Part shown: piece by piece, positions 970 through 19,877 of the stretch
Layout of the letters: every line of letters begins with the position of its first letter
Numbering within the stretch: the first letter of the stretch is position 1
NCBI GenBank assembly: GCA_011191985.1
Contig: DUEU01000069.1
Location: 6,424 to 70,423 of the forward strand
Direction: 5' to 3'
DNA from: Dehalococcoidia bacterium
GTDB lineage: Bacteria > Chloroflexota > Dehalococcoidia > Dehalococcoidales > W111
Length of the DNA: 64,000 bases
Program-made: the position numbers and the translations under genes
The notes under the pieces: generated by a model
The model's input: the letters and a program-made list of their open reading frames with translations, nothing else
Databases searched by the model: none
Told to the model about the DNA's origin: nothing

Positions 970-2385
970 TTAAACGCCGTACTTTCTGGTACTGTTGATG
1001 AAAGCAAGCAAGTTTTCCGGTCTGGCCTGGTCGATTACCGCTCCTGGAGCCAGGAAAAAACCACCGTCAGGCGCCGCTATGTCGAGCAGTCTCTGGCAGT
1101 AGTCCTCCATCTCCTGGGGTGTGCCGGTAGCGAACAGCGCGGCCGGTACATTACCACCAATGCAGGCCCAGCCGCCGAATTTCTCTTTGGCCGCTTTCAT
1201 ATCGGTCTTGTCGAATAACCACGACGTCTTACCTGACGGCAGGCCAGATTCAGCAATGATATCCAGGCGCTGGTTATAGCTGCCCTCCACGAATGGGCTT
1301 GGTATCAAGCCCGCCTCGATTAGCCCCAATAGCAATGCTTTGAAGCTGGGCCAGTAAAATTTAGCAAACTGTTCTTTTGACATAAAGCCATCGGCGCCCT
1401 TGTGCAAAGGGATACTGATATAGGGATTCCCGCTCGCCAGCGCAGATTTGGTGGCCATCTGGATGGCAAAGGGGGTAACCGCCTCACAGGCCGCTATAAC
1501 TTTATCCGGGTGGCGGTACATATCAAGCATGATGCCCCTGGTGCCGCGCATGGTATCACCGATGATGTCGAATGGGGCTTTAGTCATACCACCTCTAAGG
1601 CTCGGTGCTCCCCACTGCCATGTGATCTGCAAATTGGCTGCCTTCATTGGCTTCATATGTTCCACGGCCATATCGGCAGCCTTTAATATCTTCTCCAGCG
1701 AGCCCCGCAGCGAGCCACTGGCCACAGATGCCAGCACCCCCGGGATGCCCACAATTTCAACAAGGTTGTAAAGGTTGGGCAGCAGTTCCAATCCTTTCAA
1801 GTTCTCGAATATCCTCGGGATGTATGTTCGTAGCATGTAGCCGTCAGGGTTAGCAATCAATTGGTCATAATCCTCTGCGGGCATATACTCGCCCTCAGCG
1901 TACTGGAAGCGGATGTTCTCCGCAAGGGCGCCGGAGCGAGAACTGCCGGGCCAGCGGACACAGGTATATCCTATCAAGTCAAGGGCCCCACCGGGCAGGG
2001 AAGGAGCACCGGTGCTGTAATCGGGCTGGAAATCTTCCTGAAATCTCAGGGCCGCTTCAGCCATCCTTTCGGGGCGGTAAAAAGCATCCGCTTGCTTGAA
2101 ACCGGCATGTTCAATTACTACCCCATCGGCCAGCAGTAAATTAGGCACCCGGTCTGGTTTTTTCAAGGCGATAATATCCATCCATCTTTGAGCACGACGC
2201 CGAAAGGTTTCGGCGACTTCTCGTGAGGCGAAGGTTTTACCATTGGGAGTCATTGATAGGCGGCAAAAAAAATCGTATTTCTCATCTGCTGTCATGGAGT
2301 GAAAGTTGTCCGGATATGCTGGTGGCGTTGGCGATGAGGAAAAATCCGGCTTTTTGGAGGATATAGAATACTGAATCTCAGTCAT
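970..2385 (-). CDS. Uroporphyrinogen decarboxylase (URO-D / MtaA-CmuA-like) family protein with N-terminal extension
   Basis: 471-aa ORF whose overall pattern resembles URO-D-fold methyltransferase/decarboxylase paralogs (IPLHKGADGF, GGNVPAALF, APDGGFFLAPG). No corrinoid protein is adjacent. Confidence 0.6.
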   Translation of the reverse strand: MTEIQYSISSKKPDFSSSPTPPAYPDNFHSMTADEKYDFFCRLSMTPNGKTFASREVAETFRRRAQRWMDIIALKKPDRVPNLLLADGVVIEHAGFKQADAFYRPERMAEAALRFQEDFQPDYSTGAPSLPGGALDLIGYTCVRWPGSSRSGALAENIRFQYAEGEYMPAEDYDQLIANPDGYMLRTYIPRIFENLKGLELLPNLYNLVEIVGIPGVLASVASGSLRGSLEKILKAADMAVEHMKPMKAANLQITWQWGAPSLRGGMTKAPFDIIGDTMRGTRGIMLDMYRHPDKVIAACEAVTPFAIQMATKSALASGNPYISIPLHKGADGFMSKEQFAKFYWPSFKALLLGLIEAGLIPSPFVEGSYNQRLDIIAESGLPSGKTSWLFDKTDMKAAKEKFGGWACIGGNVPAALFATGTPQEMEDYCQRLLDIAAPDGGFFLAPGAVIDQARPENLLAFINSTRKYGV

Positions 2386-11827: not shown

Positions 11828-12706
11828 TTACATCCCGGCCGCCGCCAGGATATCGGGGACTACTTCTTCACGGCCGATGGCCATGATATGGACACCGTCA
11901 CAAATGGCGTCCTTTTTAAGGGTAGCAATCATCCGCCCCGCAATCTCAATGCCCCGGCTAAGCGCTTCACCCTTGGGGGCCGCCGCTAGCTCATCAATAA
12001 GGTTCTGCGGTACGAAGATACCGGGCACGTTCTCCGTCATGAATTTGGCCATCCGGGCCGAAGATAGCAGGATTATCCCGGCCAGCACCTTGACCGGGAA
12101 CTGGCGAGCGTACTCCATGAACCGGCCGAAGTTGTCCAGATCATAAATACCCTGGGTCTGAAAGAACTCGGCGCCGGCCTCGACCTTCTTCTCGAACTTT
12201 ATAAGCTGAGGCTCGATAGGGTTTGCCTCCGGGGTAACGATGGCTCCAGCACAGAACTCCACAGCGCCATCGAGGTCGTTACCCCCCAGGTCTTTACCCG
12301 TTTCCAGCAGGCGGATAGTCTTCAACAACTGCACCGAATCAAGGTCAAAGACACCCTTAGCTTCCTTGTGGTCGCCTACCGGGACGGCATCACCGGTAAG
12401 ACAGAGGACATTCCTTATCCCCCGGCTGTAGGCCAGCAGCAGTTCCGCCTGAAGCGCCAGGCGGTTACGGTCGCGGCAGGTCATTTGTAAAATGGGCTCG
12501 CCACCCTGTTCCTTAATAGCCAGGCAGCCACCGATGGAGGGAAAGCGCATTACCGAGCTCTGGTGGTCGGTAACATTTATGGCATCTACTTTGTCTTTGA
12601 GAAGGTCAATGTGGTGCCGCAGATTATCCAGGTTGGTCCCCTTGGGCGGCGCCACCTCACTGGTAACCACGAATTTACCGGAGTTAAGGACATCTCTAAA
12701 CACCAT
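11828..12706 (-). CDS. metF: 5,10-methylenetetrahydrofolate reductase, MetF subunit
   Basis: 292 aa with a typical MTHFR TIM-barrel pattern (TSEVAPPKG, INVTDH, CRDRNR, LTGD). RBS GAGGAGG. Confidence 0.9.
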   Translation of the reverse strand: MVFRDVLNSGKFVVTSEVAPPKGTNLDNLRHHIDLLKDKVDAINVTDHQSSVMRFPSIGGCLAIKEQGGEPILQMTCRDRNRLALQAELLLAYSRGIRNVLCLTGDAVPVGDHKEAKGVFDLDSVQLLKTIRLLETGKDLGGNDLDGAVEFCAGAIVTPEANPIEPQLIKFEKKVEAGAEFFQTQGIYDLDNFGRFMEYARQFPVKVLAGIILLSSARMAKFMTENVPGIFVPQNLIDELAAAPKGEALSRGIEIAGRMIATLKKDAICDGVHIMAIGREEVVPDILAAAGM

Positions 12707-12722
12707 TGCCTTGCCTCCTCGC

Positions 12723-13367
12723 TCACGGGATTTTGAGTGTTCTCGGCCTCGGCACTACCTGGTAGTTCCGGGGAGGGAAATAGCGGCGCATAAGGTCGAG
12801 CCGGCCCTGCTCCTTCAGCCGCTGATAGATAAGAGTCCAGGCGCAGTCCTTCTCCTTATCGACTTCACATTTACCGTTGTTGGTGCCGCCGCAGGGACCG
12901 TTCACCAGACCTTTATGGCAGGCGGTGATGGGACAGATAGCGGCGGTCTCACCTAGGACACACTGGCCGCACTGGGCGCAGACCTCATGGAAATAGCCTG
13001 GTGTATCCTCCATAGCTATGAACAGGGTGTCCAGTGCCGGTATAACCGGCCGGTCAAGGTAAAGGCTCAGCCGGTGTACCCCGAGGGCACAGGTCATCAC
13101 CAGGACACAGGCCGCGTTCTCTATCGCCGGGCTGTTTTCCTTCATAACGGCCTCGGTCATTTCGTCACAGGCCGTGGGAATAACTACCTCACCGCTGACC
13201 CGCTTGCCCAGCTCCTGAAGTTTTTCCCTCATCTCGGCCACCTGGTCGACCCCGCCGGTCTTTAGCATGGTGGTACAGGTGCCACAACCAACGATGAAGA
13301 CCCGGTCGAAGTCGGCCAGCTGCTCCTTTATTTCGTCAAACGGTTTCTGCTTTGTTATCGATTTCAT
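12723..13367 (-). CDS. metV: MetV, Cys-rich MTHFR C-terminal-domain protein (FeS/zinc subunit of MetFV)
   Basis: 214 aa with CGTCTT, CAQCGQC and CHKGLVNGPCGGTNNGKCEV..KDCAW, the signature of the MTHFR_C family. It lies 16 nt upstream of metF. Confidence 0.85.
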   Translation of the reverse strand: MKSITKQKPFDEIKEQLADFDRVFIVGCGTCTTMLKTGGVDQVAEMREKLQELGKRVSGEVVIPTACDEMTEAVMKENSPAIENAACVLVMTCALGVHRLSLYLDRPVIPALDTLFIAMEDTPGYFHEVCAQCGQCVLGETAAICPITACHKGLVNGPCGGTNNGKCEVDKEKDCAWTLIYQRLKEQGRLDLMRRYFPPRNYQVVPRPRTLKIP

Positions 13368-13401
13368 CCTATCCCTCCCCCTGAATCAGCAACCCGGGCG
13401 C

Positions 13402-16400
13402 TCATTCTTCCAGGTCACACCTGAGGCACCGCTTCGCCTCCTGAACGGCCACCTCCTCGGAGAAAGGAAGTTCCACTTCGGCAAAGCTCCGCTTCCTTTC
13501 TTGAGTAGGCAGTACCGGTTCCGCCAGCCGCGGCTGCGCCTCCCAGGTCTCCTCCGTTTCGGAAACGGGCGCTTCGGCCACGATACTCGTCTTGAGTTCA
13601 TAGATTTCCACCCGGGAGGTATCACCCTTCAGGTACTTATCTATAGCTATGGCGGCCCTTCTGCCGTCGGCAATAGCCTCTATCACCATACCCGGCCCCC
13701 GGACAAAGTCGCCGCCGGCAAAAACGCCCTCGACATTGGTCGCCAGCTTATTGCTATCAACCACCAGTGTTTCCCACCGGGTGCGCTCCAGGGCGCTGTC
13801 AGCGGGCAGGAAGGAAAGATCAGGCGCCTGGCCCACGGCGGCAATCACGGTATTAGCCGCAACAAAGAAATCAGAGCCTTCTACTGGCACCGGCCGCCGT
13901 CGCCCGCTCTCGTCAGGCTCGCCCAGTTCCATGCGGATAACCTGCAGACCGCTAAGCTGCCAGTTATCGCTGACTACCCGCGTAGGATTGGCCAAAAAAT
14001 TTACCTGGATGCCCTCGGCGACGGCCTGGTCGTATTCCACCTCGGTCACCGGCATTTCCTCCCGCGACCGCCGGTAGTAAATACTGACCTGTTCTGCGCC
14101 GAGTCGCAGGGCGGTACGCGCCGCATCCAGGGCGACATTGCCGCCCCCGATGACGGCCACCCGCTGGCCTACCGGCGCCGTCCGTCCCAGCTTGACATCC
14201 CTGAGGAATCGCAGGCCGTAATAGAACCCGGTAACGTCCTCCAGTTCACCGGGAATCCCCAGCCGCTGACTACGCTGGGCGCCGGCGGCGATAAAGACCG
14301 CCTCGTAACCCTCTTTCTTCAGGTCTTCCACAGTATAATTGACGTTTATTGGGGTATTATATCTTATCTCGACACCCTTCTGGGCTATATAATCAATCTC
14401 CTTATCAATAACCGCACGCGGCAGGCGGAATTCCGGTACCGCTACCGACAGCATACCGCCGCCGATGGGCAGGGCCTCGAATACGGTTGCCGGGTAACCG
14501 GACTTGGCCAGAAAATAGGCGCAGGACAGCCCGGTGGGGCCTGCCCCGACCACGGCCACCCGCTGGCTGTGGACCACGGGGAATGGTTCCGGGTCCTCGG
14601 TGACATTATTGAAGTACCAGTCGGCGGCGTACCGTTTTATGGCCCGTATGGCCACCGGCTCATCCAGTTCGCCGCGCCGACACCGGAACTCGCAGGGATG
14701 ACTACAGATACGGCCACAGATAGCCGGGAATGGGTTACGCTCGCGAATGGTCTCGACTGCCTCCAGCGGTTCACCGGCGGCGACATGAGCGACATACTTG
14801 GGTACATTTATCCCGGCCGGGCAGGTATGTTGACAGGGCGATATCATCAGGGCATCACAGACGGCGGCCGGACACTTCTTTTCCTTTATGTGAGACTCAT
14901 ACTCGTCGCGAAAGTAGTTGATGGTAGAGAGTACCGGATTGGGCGAGGTCTGGCCGAGACCGCATAGCGAGCACTCCTTGACCGTCTTCGCCAGGGTAAG
15001 TAGGGTATCAATATCACTATCACGTCCCTGGCCCTCGGTTATTCTGGTCAGGATTTCTAGCATCTGCCGCGTTCCCAGGCGACAGGGGGAGCACTTGCCG
15101 CAGGACTCGTCCTGAGTAAAGCTCACGAAATAGCGGGCCACCTCGACCATGCAGGTGGCCTCGTCCATCACCACCATGCCGCCGGAGCCCATTATCGAGC
15201 CCAGGCCGGCCAGCGTGTCGTATTCCACCGGCATGTCGATGAAACGGGCCGGTATGCAGCCCCCCGAAGGGCCGCCGGTCTGTATCGCCTTCAACTGCTT
15301 ACCCCGGGGGATGCCACCCCCAATATCGTAGATAATCCGGGATAACGGTGTCCCCATGGGCACCTCGACCAGACCGCTATTGGCAATCTTTCCGGTGAGG
15401 GCAAAGACCACCGTCCCTTTGCTCTTCTCAGTGCCGATACTGGCGAACCAGTCGGCACCCCGTTCAATGATGACCGGGACCGTGGCCAGCGTCTTGACAT
15501 TGTTGATAATAGTGGGGCTTCCGTCCAGGCCCGACTGGGCCGGGAACGGCGGCCGGGGACGGGGAATACCGCGCCGGCTCTCGATGGAAGCAATCAGGGC
15601 CGTCTCCTCACCACAGACAAAGGAACCAGCCCCCTCCTTAATATGCAACCTTAAATTGAAACCGGAACCCATGATGTCTTCACCCAGCAAGCCCCTGTCC
15701 TGGGCTTGGCTGAGGGCAATACCGAGACGGCTCACCGCCAGCGGATACTCGGCCCGGACATAAAAGTAGCCCTCGGCAGCGCCGATGGCATAGGCGGCAA
15801 TGGCCAGCCCTTCGATAACGGCGTGCGGGTCCGACTCCAGGATGGAACGGTCCATGAAGGCCCCGGGGTCGCCTTCGTCGGCATTACAGATCATGTACTT
15901 CGCTGAGCCAGGAGCCTGGCGGCAGAAATCCCACTTTACCCCGGTGGGAAAGCCAGCACCGCCGCGACCGCGCAGTCCGGAACTTTTTATCTCGGCAATG
16001 ACCTGCTCCGGCGTCATCTCAAGAAGAACCTTGCGCAGGGACCGGTAGCCGCCGGCAGTGAGGTACTCCTCGATATTCTCCGGGTTGATGCGGCCGCAAT
16101 TACGCAGGACAATGCGCTCCTGTTTCCGGTAAAAATCAATGTCGGCATAGTGGGGGATAGCCTGGTCAGTCACCGGGTCACGGTAGAAAAGGCGTTCTAC
16201 CGGCACCCCGCCGTCGAGGTGGGAAGCAACAATCTCGGCAGCGTCCTCCGGTTCGACATGGCAGTAGAAGATGCCCTCCGGTTCCACCATAACCGTAGGG
16301 CCGACCTGGCAGAAACCGTGACAGCCGGTGGCCTTTACCTTAACATCCAGACCAAGCCGGGCTATCTCTTCTTCCAGACGCCCCAGAATCAGGTCCGAGC

Positions 16401-16467
16401 CGGGACAGCCGGAAGCACGGCAGACTAGGACTTCGCGCTGCTTTTTTTTAGCCCCTCTCGGCGCCAT
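13402..16467 (-). CDS. Fusion protein joining a HydB/NuoF-type NADH-FMN-FeS module to a GltD/NfnB-type FAD-NAD(P)H module
   Basis: 1021 aa. The N-terminal part has a Trx-like 2Fe-2S domain (CRASGCPG..GCHGFCQVGP), the NuoF core (GRGGAGFPTGVKW, ESCGKCSPCR) and CGLGQ. This is followed by a GltD-like 4Fe-4S region (CQHTCPAG..CGRICSHPCE), an FAD site (VAVVGAGPTGLSCA) and a second dinucleotide site (VAVIGGGNVALDAART). Confidence 0.85.
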   Translation of the reverse strand: MAPRGAKKKQREVLVCRASGCPGSDLILGRLEEEIARLGLDVKVKATGCHGFCQVGPTVMVEPEGIFYCHVEPEDAAEIVASHLDGGVPVERLFYRDPVTDQAIPHYADIDFYRKQERIVLRNCGRINPENIEEYLTAGGYRSLRKVLLEMTPEQVIAEIKSSGLRGRGGAGFPTGVKWDFCRQAPGSAKYMICNADEGDPGAFMDRSILESDPHAVIEGLAIAAYAIGAAEGYFYVRAEYPLAVSRLGIALSQAQDRGLLGEDIMGSGFNLRLHIKEGAGSFVCGEETALIASIESRRGIPRPRPPFPAQSGLDGSPTIINNVKTLATVPVIIERGADWFASIGTEKSKGTVVFALTGKIANSGLVEVPMGTPLSRIIYDIGGGIPRGKQLKAIQTGGPSGGCIPARFIDMPVEYDTLAGLGSIMGSGGMVVMDEATCMVEVARYFVSFTQDESCGKCSPCRLGTRQMLEILTRITEGQGRDSDIDTLLTLAKTVKECSLCGLGQTSPNPVLSTINYFRDEYESHIKEKKCPAAVCDALMISPCQHTCPAGINVPKYVAHVAAGEPLEAVETIRERNPFPAICGRICSHPCEFRCRRGELDEPVAIRAIKRYAADWYFNNVTEDPEPFPVVHSQRVAVVGAGPTGLSCAYFLAKSGYPATVFEALPIGGGMLSVAVPEFRLPRAVIDKEIDYIAQKGVEIRYNTPINVNYTVEDLKKEGYEAVFIAAGAQRSQRLGIPGELEDVTGFYYGLRFLRDVKLGRTAPVGQRVAVIGGGNVALDAARTALRLGAEQVSIYYRRSREEMPVTEVEYDQAVAEGIQVNFLANPTRVVSDNWQLSGLQVIRMELGEPDESGRRRPVPVEGSDFFVAANTVIAAVGQAPDLSFLPADSALERTRWETLVVDSNKLATNVEGVFAGGDFVRGPGMVIEAIADGRRAAIAIDKYLKGDTSRVEIYELKTSIVAEAPVSETEETWEAQPRLAEPVLPTQERKRSFAEVELPFSEEVAVQEAKRCLRCDLEE

Positions 16468-16468
16468 G

Positions 16469-16960
16469 TCACTGCCCCCCGTCGCGATGAAAGACTGCCG
16501 CCACCTTCTTGGGATTCATGTGACCGTAAATGTCCCGGTTGACGACGATATTCGGTGCCAGGGCACAACAGCCGATGCAGGCCACAGTCTCCAGGCTATA
16601 CTCAAAGTCAGGGGTCGTTTCCCCCTCATCAATACCAAGCTGCTGTTTGACCAGTTTTAGGATGGTCTTGCCGCCACGCACGTGACAGGCAGTGCCCCGG
16701 CACACCCGGACGATATTCTTTCCCCGCGGTTCGGTGTAGAACTGGCTGTAGAAAGTAATCACGCCCTGTACTTGGCTGGGGAAAAGGCCCATCGCGCTGG
16801 CAATAGGACCTATCGCCGGCGGTGGAATGAAACCGAATACCCGTTGTATCTCATGGAGGAGAGGGATAAGCGCCCACTGCTGACCCTTATAGTCAGCGAT
16901 AATTTTCTCTATCTGCTCCAGTTCTGGCCCAGTAAGTGCCTTTGCTTCACCCATCAGCAC
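16469..16960 (-). CDS. NuoE/HydC-like 24-kDa-type [2Fe-2S] subunit
   Basis: 163 aa with CRGTACHV ... CIGCCALAP, the thioredoxin-like 2Fe-2S pattern. Its stop lies 1 nt from the downstream ATG, and its start overlaps the upstream gene by 14 nt. Confidence 0.85.
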   Translation of the reverse strand: MLMGEAKALTGPELEQIEKIIADYKGQQWALIPLLHEIQRVFGFIPPPAIGPIASAMGLFPSQVQGVITFYSQFYTEPRGKNIVRVCRGTACHVRGGKTILKLVKQQLGIDEGETTPDFEYSLETVACIGCCALAPNIVVNRDIYGHMNPKKVAAVFHRDGGQ

Positions 16961-19529
16961 TCATCCTTTCCAGCCTGACGGCGCACGTCTTTAAATCAGG
17001 AACCCCGGCTGCCCACAGGTCGTTAACGGGGCTTTCCGGGAACGAGATGGGCATGAAAAGCATCCCCTGAGGCAAAGCTTCGGTCACCCTGACCGCCGCG
17101 GTCACCTCGCCTACCGGTGATACTACCTTTACTGGGTCACTGTCAGCCAGGCCAAGCCGCTGTGCATCACCCCCGCTTACCTCTACCCAGGCCGCCGGCG
17201 AGAACTTCTTCAGCCGCCAGGCCCTCAGGCTGCGGGTACCACTGCCGAAGTGGGGCAGTACCGACCCCGTCAGCAGCGTCAGCGGATAACCATCGCCCGA
17301 TATACTTACCGGTTTATACTCAACCGGTATAAAAAGTCCTGGTTTGACCGATGTTTTTTTCGGTACCAGTTCATCAATCTCATTCCTGACCTCTTGGAGA
17401 GAAGAGTACGGCATCGGCTGGCCCATATAACGGGCCATTTCAAGGAGTATCGCCCAGTCCGGCCGGCTATCGCCAATGGGCTCAATCGCCCGGTTCAGCT
17501 TCTGGACTCTACCCTCGAAATTGGTAAAGGTACCTTCTTTCTCGGCGAAGCTGGCCGCCGGTAAGACGACTTCAGCCAGCCTGGCCGTCTCCGTGAGGAA
17601 CATATCAGCAACCACCAGAAACTCGAGGGCAGCAAGGGCATTTTTAACCAGTGCCGAATCCGGGAAGCTGGCCGTCGGGTTTTCTCCCACGATTAGCATC
17701 GCCTTCAAACTGCCCTTGTCTGCCTGCTCAATCATCTCTAAAGCGGTCAGCCCGGAACCGTCCGGCGGGCTGACTCCCCAGCGTTCCTCAAATTTTCCTC
17801 TTGCCTGAGCATCATCAACGCCCTGATAGCCGGGGAGAAAGTCGGGCAGACTGCCCATATCACCCGCCCCCCGGGCATTGTTTTCCCGCTGTAGGGCAAA
17901 GATGTCCCCTCCCCCATTGCTGATATTACCGGTCAACCGGGCTATATTGGTCAGCGCTAATATGCTGTCAACGCCACTGACATGCTGCGTAATACCGTTG
18001 CCATAAACAATGGCCGCGCTCTCCGCGCCGGCAAAGAGCCGGGCGGCCAGCACTACATCCTGAGTCGGGACGCCGGTAACCTCCGCCACGTATTCGGGGG
18101 TGTATTTCTTCAGGCTCGACACCAGTTCCGTGAAGCCTTTCGTTTTACCAGTTGAGAACTTGGCATCAACGAGTTTTTCTTCAATCATCACCCGGGCCAG
18201 GCCGTTGACAAGCGCAATATCCGTGCCGGGTCGGGGCCGCAGCCAGAGGTTAGCGAACTGGGCCAGCTTCGTCTGTCGGGGGTCGATAAGTAGCAGCCGG
18301 GCACCACGATACCTGACGGCCCGCTTTATGGCATAACCCACCGCCGGCGCCGAAACCGTAGGATCGGCCCCGATGACCATTATCACGCCGGCCTGCTCGA
18401 GGTCTTCAATCGAGTTAGGCGTAGCCGGAATACCGGCCGACCGTTCCAGACCAAGCCGCCTAGCGGAGCTATACAGCCGGCTGCCGTTATCGATATTGTT
18501 GGTGCCAATAACGGCTCGCGCCAGCCTCTGCAGCAGGTAGTTCTCCTCGTTGGTGCACTTGGAGGAACCCAGGACAGCCAGACTGTCGGCGCCGTGTTTT
18601 TCCTTTATCCGGTTGAATTCACTGGCGACCCGTTCCAGGGCTTGTTCCCAGGATACCGGCTCAAATTCACCGTTCACCTTGACCAGGGGAGCGGTGAGCC
18701 GCTCCGGGCTGTGGACGAAATCGCAGCCGTAGCTTCCCCGGACACAAAGCGTGCCCCGATTCACCGGACTAGCGGTGCCCGGTATGACCCGTACCAGATG
18801 GTTGTCCTTTACCTCCAGACTGATACTGCAGCCACAGCCGCAGAAGGGGCACACGCTGTCAACAGAATGGGAGGTCGTCCCCCCGTATGCCCGCTCCTTT
18901 TCCATAAGGGCGCCGGTAGGACAAATGGCCACACAACTCCCGCAGAAGGTGCACTCCGACTGTTCCAGCGGCGTATTATTCACGGTTGACGGTCGGGAGG
19001 CAAAGCCCCGCCCGATATAATCAATGGCACCCTCGACAACCAGCTCCTGGTCAACGCGAATGCACTTGGCGCAAAGGATACATTTGGAGAGGTCCCGCTC
19101 AATGAAGGGGTTGACTTCCTCGATGGTAGCTGCCTGGGGAATCCTCTGCAATTCCACCAGACCGACACCAAGCTCGGCGGCTATCTGCCGCAACTTGCAG
19201 CGGTTGCCCTTATCGCAGACAAGGCAGGAATCAGGGTGGCTAGCCAGCAGGAGCTGGACAATAACCCGGCGGCGCTCTATCACCCGCGGTGAGTGGGTGG
19301 CAATTACCATCCCCGGGGCTATCGGGGTGGCACAGGCTACCACCAGTGCCCCGGACTGCTCGTTCTCTACCAGACAGAGCCGACAGGCGCCAACCGGAGC
19401 CAGATAAGGCTCATGACATAGGGTAGGGATTTCCACCCCGGATTCCTGGGCCAGTTCCAGGATGGTCATCCCTGGATAACCGCTAACCGCTACCCCGTCA
19501 AGCGTAATCGTGATTGCTTCCAACCACAC
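16947..19529 (-). CDS. Formate-dehydrogenase-alpha / NuoG-like molybdopterin-fold FeS subunit lacking the catalytic Sec/Cys
   Basis: 860 aa with N-terminal 2Fe-2S (CRLC..C), a His-ligated 4Fe-4S (HPDSCLVCDKGNRC), 2x 4Fe-4S, an MopB-type cluster (CPFCGCGC..C) and MGD-fold domains. The Fdh active-site stretch reads GSRLYSS instead of CARV(U/C)HG. The start may be TTG 19523 (5 nt after GGAGG) rather than GTG 19529. Confidence 0.8.
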   Translation of the reverse strand: MWLEAITITLDGVAVSGYPGMTILELAQESGVEIPTLCHEPYLAPVGACRLCLVENEQSGALVVACATPIAPGMVIATHSPRVIERRRVIVQLLLASHPDSCLVCDKGNRCKLRQIAAELGVGLVELQRIPQAATIEEVNPFIERDLSKCILCAKCIRVDQELVVEGAIDYIGRGFASRPSTVNNTPLEQSECTFCGSCVAICPTGALMEKERAYGGTTSHSVDSVCPFCGCGCSISLEVKDNHLVRVIPGTASPVNRGTLCVRGSYGCDFVHSPERLTAPLVKVNGEFEPVSWEQALERVASEFNRIKEKHGADSLAVLGSSKCTNEENYLLQRLARAVIGTNNIDNGSRLYSSARRLGLERSAGIPATPNSIEDLEQAGVIMVIGADPTVSAPAVGYAIKRAVRYRGARLLLIDPRQTKLAQFANLWLRPRPGTDIALVNGLARVMIEEKLVDAKFSTGKTKGFTELVSSLKKYTPEYVAEVTGVPTQDVVLAARLFAGAESAAIVYGNGITQHVSGVDSILALTNIARLTGNISNGGGDIFALQRENNARGAGDMGSLPDFLPGYQGVDDAQARGKFEERWGVSPPDGSGLTALEMIEQADKGSLKAMLIVGENPTASFPDSALVKNALAALEFLVVADMFLTETARLAEVVLPAASFAEKEGTFTNFEGRVQKLNRAIEPIGDSRPDWAILLEMARYMGQPMPYSSLQEVRNEIDELVPKKTSVKPGLFIPVEYKPVSISGDGYPLTLLTGSVLPHFGSGTRSLRAWRLKKFSPAAWVEVSGGDAQRLGLADSDPVKVVSPVGEVTAAVRVTEALPQGMLFMPISFPESPVNDLWAAGVPDLKTCAVRLERMSADG

Positions 19530-19730
19530 CTCCTACCAACGCTGTGACTTGACTGCCTATTTACTGCCAGCGTACCTGAACCAATCTACTTGACTTACTT
19601 TCCCCATGCCAGATACAAGACGACAATCCACGGCGATTCTGGCAAAAAGCCCACGCTCATATCTATATATGGTGCTCTACTCTGGCTAAGACCTGAAGCA
19701 GCCGGTATTACCGGTTGGGATAAGCGTATA

Positions 19731-19759
19731 CTAAAAACCGGAGTATGTCAATACTCCGG
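19731..19759 (-). terminator. Intrinsic-terminator-like hairpin oriented on the minus strand
   Basis: Perfect 9-bp stem CCGGAGTAT / ATACTCCGG with a 4-nt loop (19738-19759), followed on the minus strand by TTTTT (19737-19733). No annotated minus-strand gene lies upstream of it. Confidence 0.4.
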
Positions 19760-19877
19760 CCCATAAAAGCGGTATACGCAGACGGTGGGACTCTTTCTGT
19801 TAGACGGTAACTCGCCAGCCAGTACGTTTGTACCGGTACATAGTGCTTGTACCGTGCTTCCCCTTTGCCCCTGTATC

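Follow-up and report, generated by a model that had tools for sequence, protein, structure and literature searches.

The window analysed here is a 64,000-nucleotide stretch of a Dehalococcoidia contig (DUEU01000069.1). Its minus strand carries a block of five open reading frames (ORFs), spanning positions 11828-19529, that encode an Fdh-like subunit, a NuoE-like subunit, a NuoF::GltD fusion, MetV and MetF. The features of the locus are as follows.

19530..19827, no strand assigned: divergent intergenic region between the operon and ftsH, 298 nt, likely promoter region (predicted from sequence)
16947..19529, minus strand: Fdh-alpha/NuoG-like subunit, BfuA-like, 860 aa (Pfam)
16469..16960, minus strand: NuoE/HydC/BfuC-like [2Fe-2S] subunit, 163 aa (PF01257, 168 bits; NCBIfam NuoE)
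13402..16467, minus strand: NuoF::GltD fusion, 1021 aa (Pfam and NCBIfam)
13368..13401, minus strand: junction between the fusion gene and metV, 34 nt (sequence, terminator and promoter scan)
12723..13367, minus strand: MetV, 214 aa, Fe-S/Zn subunit of a MetFV-type methylene-THF reductase (PF12225, 124 bits)
11828..12706, minus strand: MetF, 292 aa, flavin- and methylene-THF-binding catalytic subunit (PF02219, 145 bits)

The ORF check returned exactly these coordinates for all five genes, and the spacings calculated from them, in order from the Fdh-like gene to metF, are -14, +1, +34 and +16 nt, confirming the tight packing described in the initial annotation. Thus, the start of the NuoE-like gene overlaps the Fdh-like gene by 14 nt, and metV lies directly upstream of metF. 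Scanning the block for terminators and promoters gave no match, and the sole feature in the 34-nt gap before metV is a Shine-Dalgarno-like GGGGGAGGG. No Rfam element was found in the divergent intergenic region. ORF spacing and Pfam domains support both the five domain assignments made earlier and the notion that the five genes are probably a single operon. The neighbours of the block are ftsH, an MMPL transporter gene and housekeeping genes. As Pfam and the flank annotation revealed no other Wood-Ljungdahl genes within the window, pathway clustering does not account for the adjacency of metFV and the three upstream genes (hereafter the trio).

By its sequence, the MetF-MetV pair is a methylene-THF reductase (MTHFR) of the MetFV type. 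MetF covers the full-length profile of the MTHFR TIM barrel and shows the highest conservation among the five proteins (71-90%); an E. coli NADH-type enzyme was rejected, since the protein falls far short of the NCBIfam cut-offs set for NAD(P)H-MetF equivalogs. MetV carries the 'VNGPCGG' motif and twelve Cys residues that are invariant in all 56 homologues, and no relative of it was found in the PDB. MetFV enzymes have no NAD(P)H site of their own (PMC8760232), and the MetVF heterodimer of several acetogens needs no partner for activity with reduced ferredoxin in vitro (PMC8760232, PMC8515935).

The NuoE-like protein consists of a 2Fe-2S_thioredx domain (Pfam), with Cys87, 92, 128 and 132 kept in 43-44 of 44 homologues. 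The fusion protein, matched by Complex1_51K, SLBB, NADH_4Fe-4S, Fer4_20 and Pyr_redox_2, is composed of a thioredoxin-like [2Fe-2S] domain (residues 1-100), a BfuB/NuoF core with an FMN and NADH site, a [4Fe-4S] cluster and the 'HIKEKKCPAAVC' motif (residues ~120-541), and an NfnA/StnC-type GltD module with two [4Fe-4S] clusters, FAD, a predicted NADPH-type site and an RCLRC motif at its C-terminus (residues ~542-1021). The best matches of its N-terminal half are the bifurcating HydB/StnB/NfnB proteins (7t2r_B, 782 bits; HydB, 726; StnB, 666), with the non-bifurcating FdsB or Nqo1 scoring about 400 bits, and its C-terminal half matches the GltD part of NfnA/StnC. The cluster Cys are all conserved (50-56 of 56 homologues), and the motifs GRGGAGFPTG..KW, NADEGDPGAFMDR, GAGPxG and GGGNVA are invariant. 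This supports the two pyridine-nucleotide sites and the long Fe-S wire that had been proposed for this locus. The second nucleotide site carries 'YRR' in the window protein and an acidic 'CLE' in its place in a Desulfobacterales sub-clade (20 of 56 homologues), so that the role of this site is not uniform.

A domain comparison with Bfu proteins showed that the B3/B4 ferredoxin-like domain is absent from the fusion: after 'HIKEKKCPAAVC' (the counterpart in HydB is 'HIRDKKCPAGVC'), the protein switches to the NfnA-type GltD module, and no CxxCxxCxxxCP pair follows that motif. This domain, which carries the B3 and B4 [4Fe-4S] clusters at the C-terminus of BfuB, provides the ferredoxin route in Stn/NfnABC and in all Bfu enzymes with a characterised structure, and it belongs to the family definition (PMC11829005, PMC9304861).

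The Fdh-like protein (Pfam: Fer2_4, NADH-G_4Fe-4S_3, Fer4, Molybdop_Fe4S4, Molybdopterin and Molydop_binding) has N-terminal [2Fe-2S] and [4Fe-4S] clusters followed by a molybdopterin-type domain without catalytic residues. Its closest PDB relatives are true Fdhs. In the alignments, Tyr353-Ser354 stand opposite Sec140-His141 of FdhH, and Gln547 stands opposite the Arg of 'LRGQNN'. A formate dehydrogenase of the FdhF/FdsA type is ruled out, as Sec/Cys, His and Arg are all replaced and formate chemistry is not expected; the true Fdhs of loci L066, L074, L078, L080, L083 and L085 keep CARL[C/U]H and PLRGQNN. The Fe-S Cys ligands, including those of the cluster adjoining the dead pterin site, are all kept in 41 of 41 homologues from two phyla. 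The Mo-domain is the least conserved part of the subunit (identity down to 34%) and is absent altogether from one relative, L063. It retains 74-76% of the positions invariant in true Fdhs. At the former active site, 'RLY[SN]' is fairly conserved within the Dehalococcoidia, and there is no conservation at all in the Desulfobacterota carriers of the same operon. The loss of the catalytic residues agrees with the silent third subunit of the initial annotation, and the protein is read as a putative Fe-S wire or scaffold.

Synteny was surveyed in 65 MetV relatives with readable upstream DNA, from species-level genomes of two phyla. Within the MetV clade, to which the statistic applies because loci were picked by MetV similarity, a NuoF-type or Fdh-type redox gene lies immediately 5' of metV in 62 of the 65 loci and a NuoF::GltD gene in 52 (type A; 41 full and 11 truncated), among them a Desulfarculales MAG (L031). 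The complete Fdh-like/NuoE/NuoF::GltD/MetV/MetF order is present in 41 of 65, in Dehalococcoidia and several Desulfobacterota orders, with MetV identity down to 49% among syntenic loci. Conservation of synteny in related genomes had been named beforehand as a test, and it held. As the order recurs in two phyla although the outer flanks differ, the link between metFV and the trio goes beyond chance. The gap between the fusion stop and the metV start (34 nt in the window) has a median of 13 nt and is at most 70 nt in 47 of 56 loci. In nine loci without GltD (type B), metV is immediately preceded by genes for a 225-aa NuoG-N Fe-S protein, NuoE and a 400-aa NuoF, with no other substrate site; in L063, genes for NuoG-N, NuoE and NuoF::GltD stand before metV. 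Judged by gene content, type B loci and L063 keep only what the input module needs. In addition, MetV::RnfC_N::Complex1_51K fusions (P0252, P0259) join the MetV domain to a NuoF-type NADH/FMN module.

On balance, we slightly favour the view that the five genes encode a single NAD(P)H-linked MetFV-type methylene-THF reductase complex. The evidence pointing to it comprises: the synteny and the short gaps; the simpler relatives; the conservation of Fe-S ligands despite drift of the Mo-domain; the MetV::RnfC_N::Complex1_51K fusions; the lack of a pathway cluster; the lack of a nucleotide site in MetFV; and the monophyly of the MetFV clade with this neighbourhood ('group III = X type'; Yi et al., PMC8515935). 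Counted against it, in our analysis, are the S. ovata Stn precedent, the activity of MetVF alone with ferredoxin, and the 'CLE' sub-clade.

In such a complex, MetF (flavin and folate site) and MetV (Fe-S) would exchange electrons, in either direction, with a dedicated NuoE/NuoF/NuoG-like flavin-Fe-S module rather than with free ferredoxin, RnfC2 or HdrABC-MvhD. This module probably derives from a formate dehydrogenase linked to NAD(P)+; its FdhA-like subunit has lost the active site and would persist as a chain of five Fe-S clusters. NADH would be oxidised at the FMN of the NuoF-like subunit, whose C-terminal ferredoxin-reducing domain has been exchanged for a GltD/NfnB-type FAD domain, predicted to bind NADPH in this organism. 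The net chemistry would be NAD(P)H + methylene-THF <-> NAD(P)+ + methyl-THF. The two nucleotide sites might be either alternatives or energetically coupled; if coupled, exergonic methylene-THF reduction by NADH could drive NADP+ reduction, with the reverse occurring during methyl-THF oxidation.

It is conceivable, but rather unlikely, that the operon specifies two separate co-transcribed enzymes, a free Stn-like NADH/NADPH (with or without ferredoxin) oxidoreductase and a stand-alone 'type II' MetVF, with the trio balancing nucleotide pools for the methyl branch and MetVF using ferredoxin or another carrier. The stnABC genes of S. ovata directly follow metVF, but Stn was purified by itself, as a free three-subunit enzyme with transhydrogenase activity (PMC7483475), so adjacency alone can mislead. 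Type II MetVF functions by itself with reduced ferredoxin in vitro, and an NADH-type and an NADPH-type site both reside in the trio. However, MetVF of S. ovata has its own Hdr/Mvh partner (PMC7483475), whereas that of the window has none nearby, and no examined locus had the trio separated from metV or metF. Without B3/B4, the carrier of electrons to ferredoxin in Stn/NfnABC, the trio could only be an uncoupled NADH:NADP+ transhydrogenase, hardly needing ~10 clusters, and such a role would be pointless in the 20 of 56 homologues whose second site looks NADH-type. Moreover, the GltD-less relatives have no second substrate except MetVF.

A special case of the complex model, the view of the initial annotation and of Yi et al., is a ferredoxin-coupled bifurcating or confurcating MTHFR (2 NAD(P)H + Fd(ox) + methylene-THF <-> 2 NAD(P)+ + Fd(red) + methyl-THF), which we consider improbable. 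Such a reaction is thermodynamically feasible and would solve the MTHFR energetic problem discussed in PMC8760232. The NuoF half scores far higher against bifurcating BfuB proteins than against FdsB or Nqo1, and it retains the N-terminal [2Fe-2S] domain and the 'HIKEKKCPAAVC' motif, which is of B2 type. However, with B3/B4 missing (PMC11829005, PMC9304861) and the GltD module in place, the ferredoxin link claimed earlier has no sequence support. The operon also lacks a ferredoxin gene, and the NuoF of GltD-less relatives is of the minimal, non-bifurcating type. Very improbably, the Fdh-like subunit has remained a working molybdo- or tungsto-enzyme with Tyr353 as a new ligand and a new substrate, adding a fourth reaction coupled to MetFV: the 'RLY[SN]' motif, fairly conserved in Dehalococcoidia, and the retained Fdh-invariant positions would suit this, but Sec/Cys, His and Arg are all lost, the site is unconserved in Desulfobacterota, L063 dispenses with the domain, and to our knowledge no Tyr-ligated Mo/W-bisPGD enzyme is known.

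The candidate single complex can be compared with several known systems. Stn/NfnABC (PDB 8oh5, 9bov and 9n5u) shares with it a NuoE-like subunit (BfuC with the C1 [2Fe-2S] cluster), a NuoF-like subunit (BfuB with FMN, NADH site and the B1 [4Fe-4S] cluster), a GltD/NfnB-like FAD-NADPH module of the same sub-type (without N-terminal RCxxC, with a C-terminal Cys pair), a pterin-less Fdh/NuoG-like Fe-S subunit and, in S. ovata, proximity to metVF. The initial annotation erred in ascribing a NuoF::NfnB-like fusion to the Stn layout, as the GltD module of those enzymes is inserted in the NuoG-like BfuA (StnC/NfnA); in the window it sits on the NuoF-like C-terminus, exactly in the place of the B3/B4 domain, and the BfuA-like subunit has no insertion between Fer2_4 and NADH-G_4Fe-4S_3. 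The GltD position and the lack of B3/B4, which Stn/NfnABC BfuB proteins possess, led us to reject a canonical Stn/NfnABC. There are further differences: the Fdh-like subunit matches genuine FdhA (E 1e-165) much more closely than StnC/NfnA (E 1e-79 to 1e-84), the gene order is A-C-B in the window and A(NuoE)-B-C in Stn, and the linkage to MetVF is strict.

Yi et al. (2021) designated NuoEFG-homolog genes upstream of metFV as an MTHFR of 'X type', unstudied but common among Desulfobacterales and Chloroflexi, and raised bifurcation as a speculation (PMC8515935). The window has NuoE/F/G-homolog genes directly 5' of metV-metF, and the X type of Dethiosulfatarculus sandiegensis, known here by the description in PMC8515935, fits the window and the 52 type A loci. 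Novelty is therefore limited, as the layout is widespread and was flagged in 2021; the combination had thus already been noticed when the initial annotation proposed it as a candidate new coupling mode. In agreement with that annotation, we found no biochemical characterisation of the arrangement in the literature. The single paragraph on the X type in Yi et al. is silent on the GltD/NADPH module, on the inactivated Fdh site, on the loss of B3/B4 and on the variants without GltD (PMC8515935).

Acetobacterium woodii RnfC2-MetVF (type III / 3S) likewise has a dedicated NADH-oxidising Complex1_51K-type flavo-Fe-S subunit, encoded beside metVF, that supplies MetVF with electrons; its closest functional analogue would be the type B relatives, and the MetV::RnfC_N::Complex1_51K fusions follow the same principle (PMC8760232). 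Its input module is one RnfC-like protein with a MetV domain, and the window, with NuoE, NuoF::GltD and the Fdh-like subunit, adds a second (NADPH) site and ~10 clusters. Type III identity was rejected, as RnfC_N is absent and matches to the RnfC NCBIfam models are weak and confined to the 51K region common to both. The type IV / 6S enzyme of Moorella thermoacetica, HdrABC-MvhD-MetVF, resembles the candidate complex in having a multi-subunit flavin-Fe-S module on MetVF and suspected energy coupling, but the modules are unrelated (HdrA FAD versus NuoF FMN and GltD FAD), and hdrA, hdrB, hdrC and mvhD are not adjacent to the operon in the window, which excludes type IV. Finally, the FdhA, NuoE and NuoF subunit set and the Fe-S layout are common to the window and FdsABG / Type 1 Fdh-Bfu, but the window protein has lost Sec/Cys, His and Arg; an Fdh version with an intact active site and the same NuoF::GltD fusion occurs in Dehalococcoidia (L074, L080 and L083).

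The five open reading frames of the operon (window 11828-19529, minus strand) lie, with spacings of -14, +1, +34 and +16 nt, exactly where the initial annotation had placed them, and its five domain assignments, for which an HMM check was run, were every one confirmed by Pfam, with NCBIfam in agreement.

Genes of the operon in gene order (all minus strand), with Pfam domains
Fdh-like protein, 860 aa: Fer2_4, NADH-G_4Fe-4S_3, Fer4, Molybdop_Fe4S4, Molybdopterin, Molydop_binding
NuoE-type protein, 163 aa: 2Fe-2S_thioredx
NuoF::GltD fusion protein, 1021 aa: Complex1_51K, SLBB, NADH_4Fe-4S, then Fer4_20, Pyr_redox_2
MetV, 214 aa: PF12225
MetF, 292 aa: PF02219 (MTHFR)

The window MetF scores far under the cut-offs of the NCBIfam equivalogs for NAD(P)H-dependent MetF. 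The 34-nt gap before metV contains nothing but a Shine-Dalgarno-like GGGGGAGGG, a terminator and promoter scan returned chance-level matches only, none of them on any operon junction, and a 298-nt divergent region sets the operon apart from ftsH. Riboswitch or other RNA control was rejected, as there was no Rfam match in the whole window or in the leader/298-nt divergent region; no tRNAs were found in the window. An NCBI-listed protein from a Dehalococcoidia MAG is 100% identical to the fusion protein. Antisense to the fusion gene runs a 566-aa ORF (13267-14967, plus strand), most likely no gene but an artefact, the G+C-rich coding strand having left this frame free of stops. About 9 kb from the operon, a 471-aa protein (970-2385, minus strand) carries a C-terminal URO-D-family domain, a fold used by corrinoid methyltransferases, and a link to C1 metabolism is possible.

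Close homologues of the fusion protein (77-81% identity) occupy the same block of five genes, with outer flanks that differ. Using a MetV alignment built from diverse representatives, 80 MetV loci (handles L0xx) were fetched from species-level genomes and scored with the window's proteins; the 65 that had 1.6 kb or more of DNA ahead of metV were taken as informative.

Genes directly upstream of metV in the 65 informative loci
NuoF::GltD: 52 loci, 41 of them with the full five-gene order
Minimal NuoF, after NuoE and a 225-aa NuoG-N Fe-S protein: 9 loci
Catalytic FdhA: 1 locus
None of these redox genes: 3 loci, one of them adjoined by a 100-N assembly gap

The initial annotation had made its proposal depend on synteny in related genomes, and across these loci the order is clearly conserved. 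Loci with the full order come from Dehalococcoidia as well as from Desulfobacterales, Desulfarculales, Desulfomonilaceae and Syntrophaceae, at MetV identities down to 49%, and the fusion gene and metV lie a median of 13 nt apart. The complete genome CP070645.1 is among the carriers of the operon. Only one close relative, L020, whose MetV is 73% identical to that of the window, apparently lacks the redox module. It is uninformative because 100 N (L020:9372-9471) abut metV directly upstream in a "complete" MAG chromosome (CP070642.1), and an assembly join may be behind the absence. Pathway clustering does not explain the adjacency: a big WLP cluster of the kind known from S. ovata is rejected, because outside the operon the window carries housekeeping genes, among them those for EF-G, tRNA synthetases and arginine synthesis.

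The best PDB relatives of the Fdh-like subunit are genuine formate dehydrogenases. Its Tyr353-Ser354 aligns with Sec140-His141 of E. coli FdhH, positions at which T. kivui FdhF has Cys-His and the F420-dependent Fdh has Sec-His, and Gln547 aligns with the Arg of the "PLRGQNNVQG" motif. All Fdh-like homologues in five-gene clusters are without these catalytic residues, and the site is unconserved in Desulfobacterota; CARL[C/U]H and LRGQNN are kept by other Fdh genes in the examined loci (L066, L074, L078, L080, L083, L085). All Fe-S ligands, including the four Cys of the cluster beside the former pterin site, are kept in 41/41 at overall identities down to 34%; C227/230/234/262 belong to one of the subunit's clusters. 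Within the molybdopterin domain, retention of positions invariant in true Fdh is 0.76 for the Dehalococcoidia members and 0.55 for those of Desulfobacterota, and in L063 (Dehalococcoidales) the Mo-domain is wholly absent, NuoG-N, NuoE and NuoF::GltD preceding metV. These alignments mark the Fdh-like subunit as a fossil, with selection acting on the wire and not on the catalytic domain. An active formate dehydrogenase beside MetFV, as two WLP steps, is rejected with all three catalytic residues missing and the site unconserved.

Enzymes of the Bfu family are defined by clusters B1 to B5 (PMC9304861). In the PDB search, the N-half of the fusion protein was closest to bifurcating BfuB (NuoF-like) subunits (bits: A. 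mobile HydB 782, HydB 726, StnB 666 and NfnB 664; FdsB/Nqo1 about 400), while its C-half finds its match in the GltD portion of NfnA/StnC. The window's 'HIKEKKCPAAVC' matches HydB 'HIRDKKCPAGVC'; where HydB enters the B3/B4 ferredoxin-like domain, the window turns to 'ISPCQHTCPAGINVPKY', matching NfnA 'IGPCQNGCPAHSDVQGY', and the fusion protein ends on a conserved RCLRC motif. The GltD module stands in place of the B3/B4 domain, and therefore an NADPH-FAD module has replaced the ferredoxin-reducing domain. Across 52-56 homologues there is no variation in the FMN/NADH motifs or in the FAD GxGxxG motif. At the second nucleotide site, GGGNVA plus an NADPH-type "YRR" (fusion residues 798-800, window about 14068-14076, minus strand), the 2'-phosphate-binding position of the GltD module, is found in the window and in 36/56 homologues; the other 20/56, all in one Desulfobacterales/Desulfobacteraceae sub-clade, have "CLE". 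By the general Rossmann rule an acidic residue here is NADH-like, and the change from YRR to CLE suggests a switch of the second site from NADPH to NADH.

Common to all variants are the NuoG-N Fe-S chain, NuoE, NuoF, MetV and MetF; what is optional is the Mo-domain and the GltD module. A variant without either is seen in L065, L066 (NPL-UPA2 Unc8), L071, L072, L074, L075, L077, L080, L081 and L083, where, as at L071:7636-11606, metV-metF are directly preceded by NuoG-N (225 aa, an Fe-S protein), NuoE (145 aa) and a minimal NuoF (400 aa); by analogy with RnfC2-MetVF, this variant looks like a plain NADH:methylene-THF reductase. A Dehalococcoidia MAG (L078:7347-11617) has a gene for a catalytic FdhA of 885 aa, with both CARLCH and LRGQNN intact, that runs 4 nt into the start of metV; metF comes next, RACo lies upstream and NuoE/NuoF are not nearby. 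This may be a formate-linked MetFV unit. Redox islands occur in L074, L080 and L083. At L083:1-13014 the order is MetF, DUF3786, NuoE, NuoF::GltD (1015 aa) and catalytic FdhA, followed by NuoG-N, NuoE, NuoF, MetV, a histidine kinase and MetF. NuoF::GltD thus exists with an intact-active-site Fdh in Dehalococcoidia, and these islands are an ancestor-like form of the window's trio. MAG W73_240 has both the island type (L080) and a cluster with NuoF::GltD directly upstream of metV (L007).

An additional, divergent MTHFR-family gene directly upstream of the Fdh-like gene makes a six-gene cluster in Desulfobacterota (L040:2735-3604, and in about 20 Desulfobacterota loci at the corresponding place: L033, L034, L043-L046, L049-L051, L053, L054, L057-L059, L062, L068, L069, L076). 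Its product is about 30% identical to the window MetF (PF02219, 61 bits), and the gene is absent from the Dehalococcoidia loci. Histidine kinases are repeatedly tied to the MetFV system: a GAF-HisKA-HATPase gene lies between metV and metF (L063:5395-6672, L083:10659-12092), the MetV representative P0123 is a MetV-domain::HisKA::HATPase fusion, and a GAF-HisKA_3 kinase with response regulators lies just upstream of the operon in Dehalococcoidia relatives (L001:1825-4797, L002, L004). The window is without them, the neighbour of its operon being ftsH. A Rosetta-stone search among long MetV representatives found MetV::MetF, MetV::RnfC, MetV::Rieske and MetV::histidine-kinase fusions and no MetV::NuoF, GltD or Fdh fusion; natural fusions (P0132, P0139, P0142, P0212, P0122) include single-chain MetV::MetF reductases of about 545 aa, a 385-aa MetV::Rieske and a 311-aa 4Fe-4S dicluster::MetV protein.

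By themselves MetFV enzymes lack a nucleotide site, for which the remedy in A. woodii is an RnfC-type Complex1_51K subunit that itself has a MetV domain (PMC8760232). Given this precedent and the parts constant across the variants, we consider it somewhat probable that the operon encodes one NAD(P)H-linked MetFV reductase, its input module being a recycled NAD(P)+-formate dehydrogenase, an origin supported by the Dehalococcoidia loci in which an intact-active-site Fdh goes with the same NuoF::GltD. The initial annotation had envisaged a bifurcating MTHFR linked to NADH, NADPH and ferredoxin; the two nucleotide sites stand, and may be either alternatives or energetically coupled, but the ferredoxin part gets no support from the sequence, and ferredoxin-coupled bifurcation would be without its usual hardware (B3/B4).

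That the trio and MetVF are two enzymes on one transcript, functioning separately, is rather unlikely. We retain this alternative because the stnABC genes of S. ovata follow directly after metVF, on its downstream side, yet Stn was purified as a free transhydrogenase (PMC7483475), and because MetVF heterodimers are active alone with reduced ferredoxin in vitro (PMC8760232, PMC8515935). However, the trio lacks the ferredoxin domain, one sub-clade has an NADH-like second site, and there are GltD-less variants. Doubtful, and less probable again, is a ferredoxin-independent, three-substrate energy-coupling enzyme, with NADPH-FAD on the ferredoxin branch and MetVF ending the BfuA (NuoG-like) wire. 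The NADPH-FAD module would then sit on the branch which in other Bfu enzymes carries low-potential electrons to ferredoxin, and NADP+ reduction would be driven by exergonic methylene-THF reduction with NADH (2 NADH + NADP+ + CH2-THF -> 2 NAD+ + NADPH + CH3-THF); in the oxidative WLP, FolD-made NADPH would help push methyl-THF oxidation onto NAD+. If true, flavin-based bifurcation would gain a new kind, with the FolD and MetF steps stoichiometrically matched by built-in means.

The predicted NAD(P)H-linked reductase bears on how methylene-THF reduction, the most exergonic WLP step, connects to cellular electron carriers, and on energy conservation there. In known MetFV enzymes ferredoxin is wasted, NADH is used without coupling, or the second acceptor is unidentified. 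The redox module is the standard MetFV partner in Dehalococcoidia and Desulfobacterota, which dominate anoxic sediments and subsurface habitats; some carriers reverse the WLP, and methyl-THF oxidation is then the thermodynamic bottleneck. The parts list and wiring are now concrete and testable: a pair of nucleotide sites, the lack of a ferredoxin domain, and a fossil formate dehydrogenase as wire, a clean case of a catalytic subunit recycled into an electron conduit. The simpler variants offer a natural series for comparison. In the PDB, MetV is without relatives and MetF has only distant ones, and since, to our knowledge, no MetFV-type structure has been solved, the complex is worthwhile for cryo-EM.

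NuoEFG-homolog genes upstream of metFV were reported by Yi et al. (2021) in Dethiosulfatarculus sandiegensis, as an arrangement widespread in Desulfobacterales and Chloroflexi, unstudied, and speculatively an "X type" with bifurcation (PMC8515935). The Bfu survey does not mention MTHFR, no characterisation of a NuoEFG-type/MetFV system was found in the literature, and the cluster is not discussed in proteomic and genomic papers on Desulfococcus, ANME partners, deep-sea Chloroflexi, Acetothermia and NPL-UPA2. The operon is therefore real and conserved, an uncharacterised variant within a known kind of enzyme; that it exists had already been noted, and to this we add the dead Fdh, the exchange of B3/B4 for GltD, the nucleotide-site switch and the variant series. 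Fusions like the A. woodii MetV::RnfC occur among the MetV representatives. For Stn/NfnABC, the initial annotation had given a NuoF::NfnB-like subunit; the GltD module is in fact inserted in the NuoG-like subunit (PMC7483475), and electrons travel from FAD along the A-clusters, reach the [B1-FMN-C1] site, and leave it via C1 for B3/B4 and then ferredoxin (PMC11829005). A canonical Stn/NfnABC is ruled out on two defining features: the parts are alike, but the wiring is unlike, with the window's GltD module on the NuoF-like subunit and B3/B4 gone.
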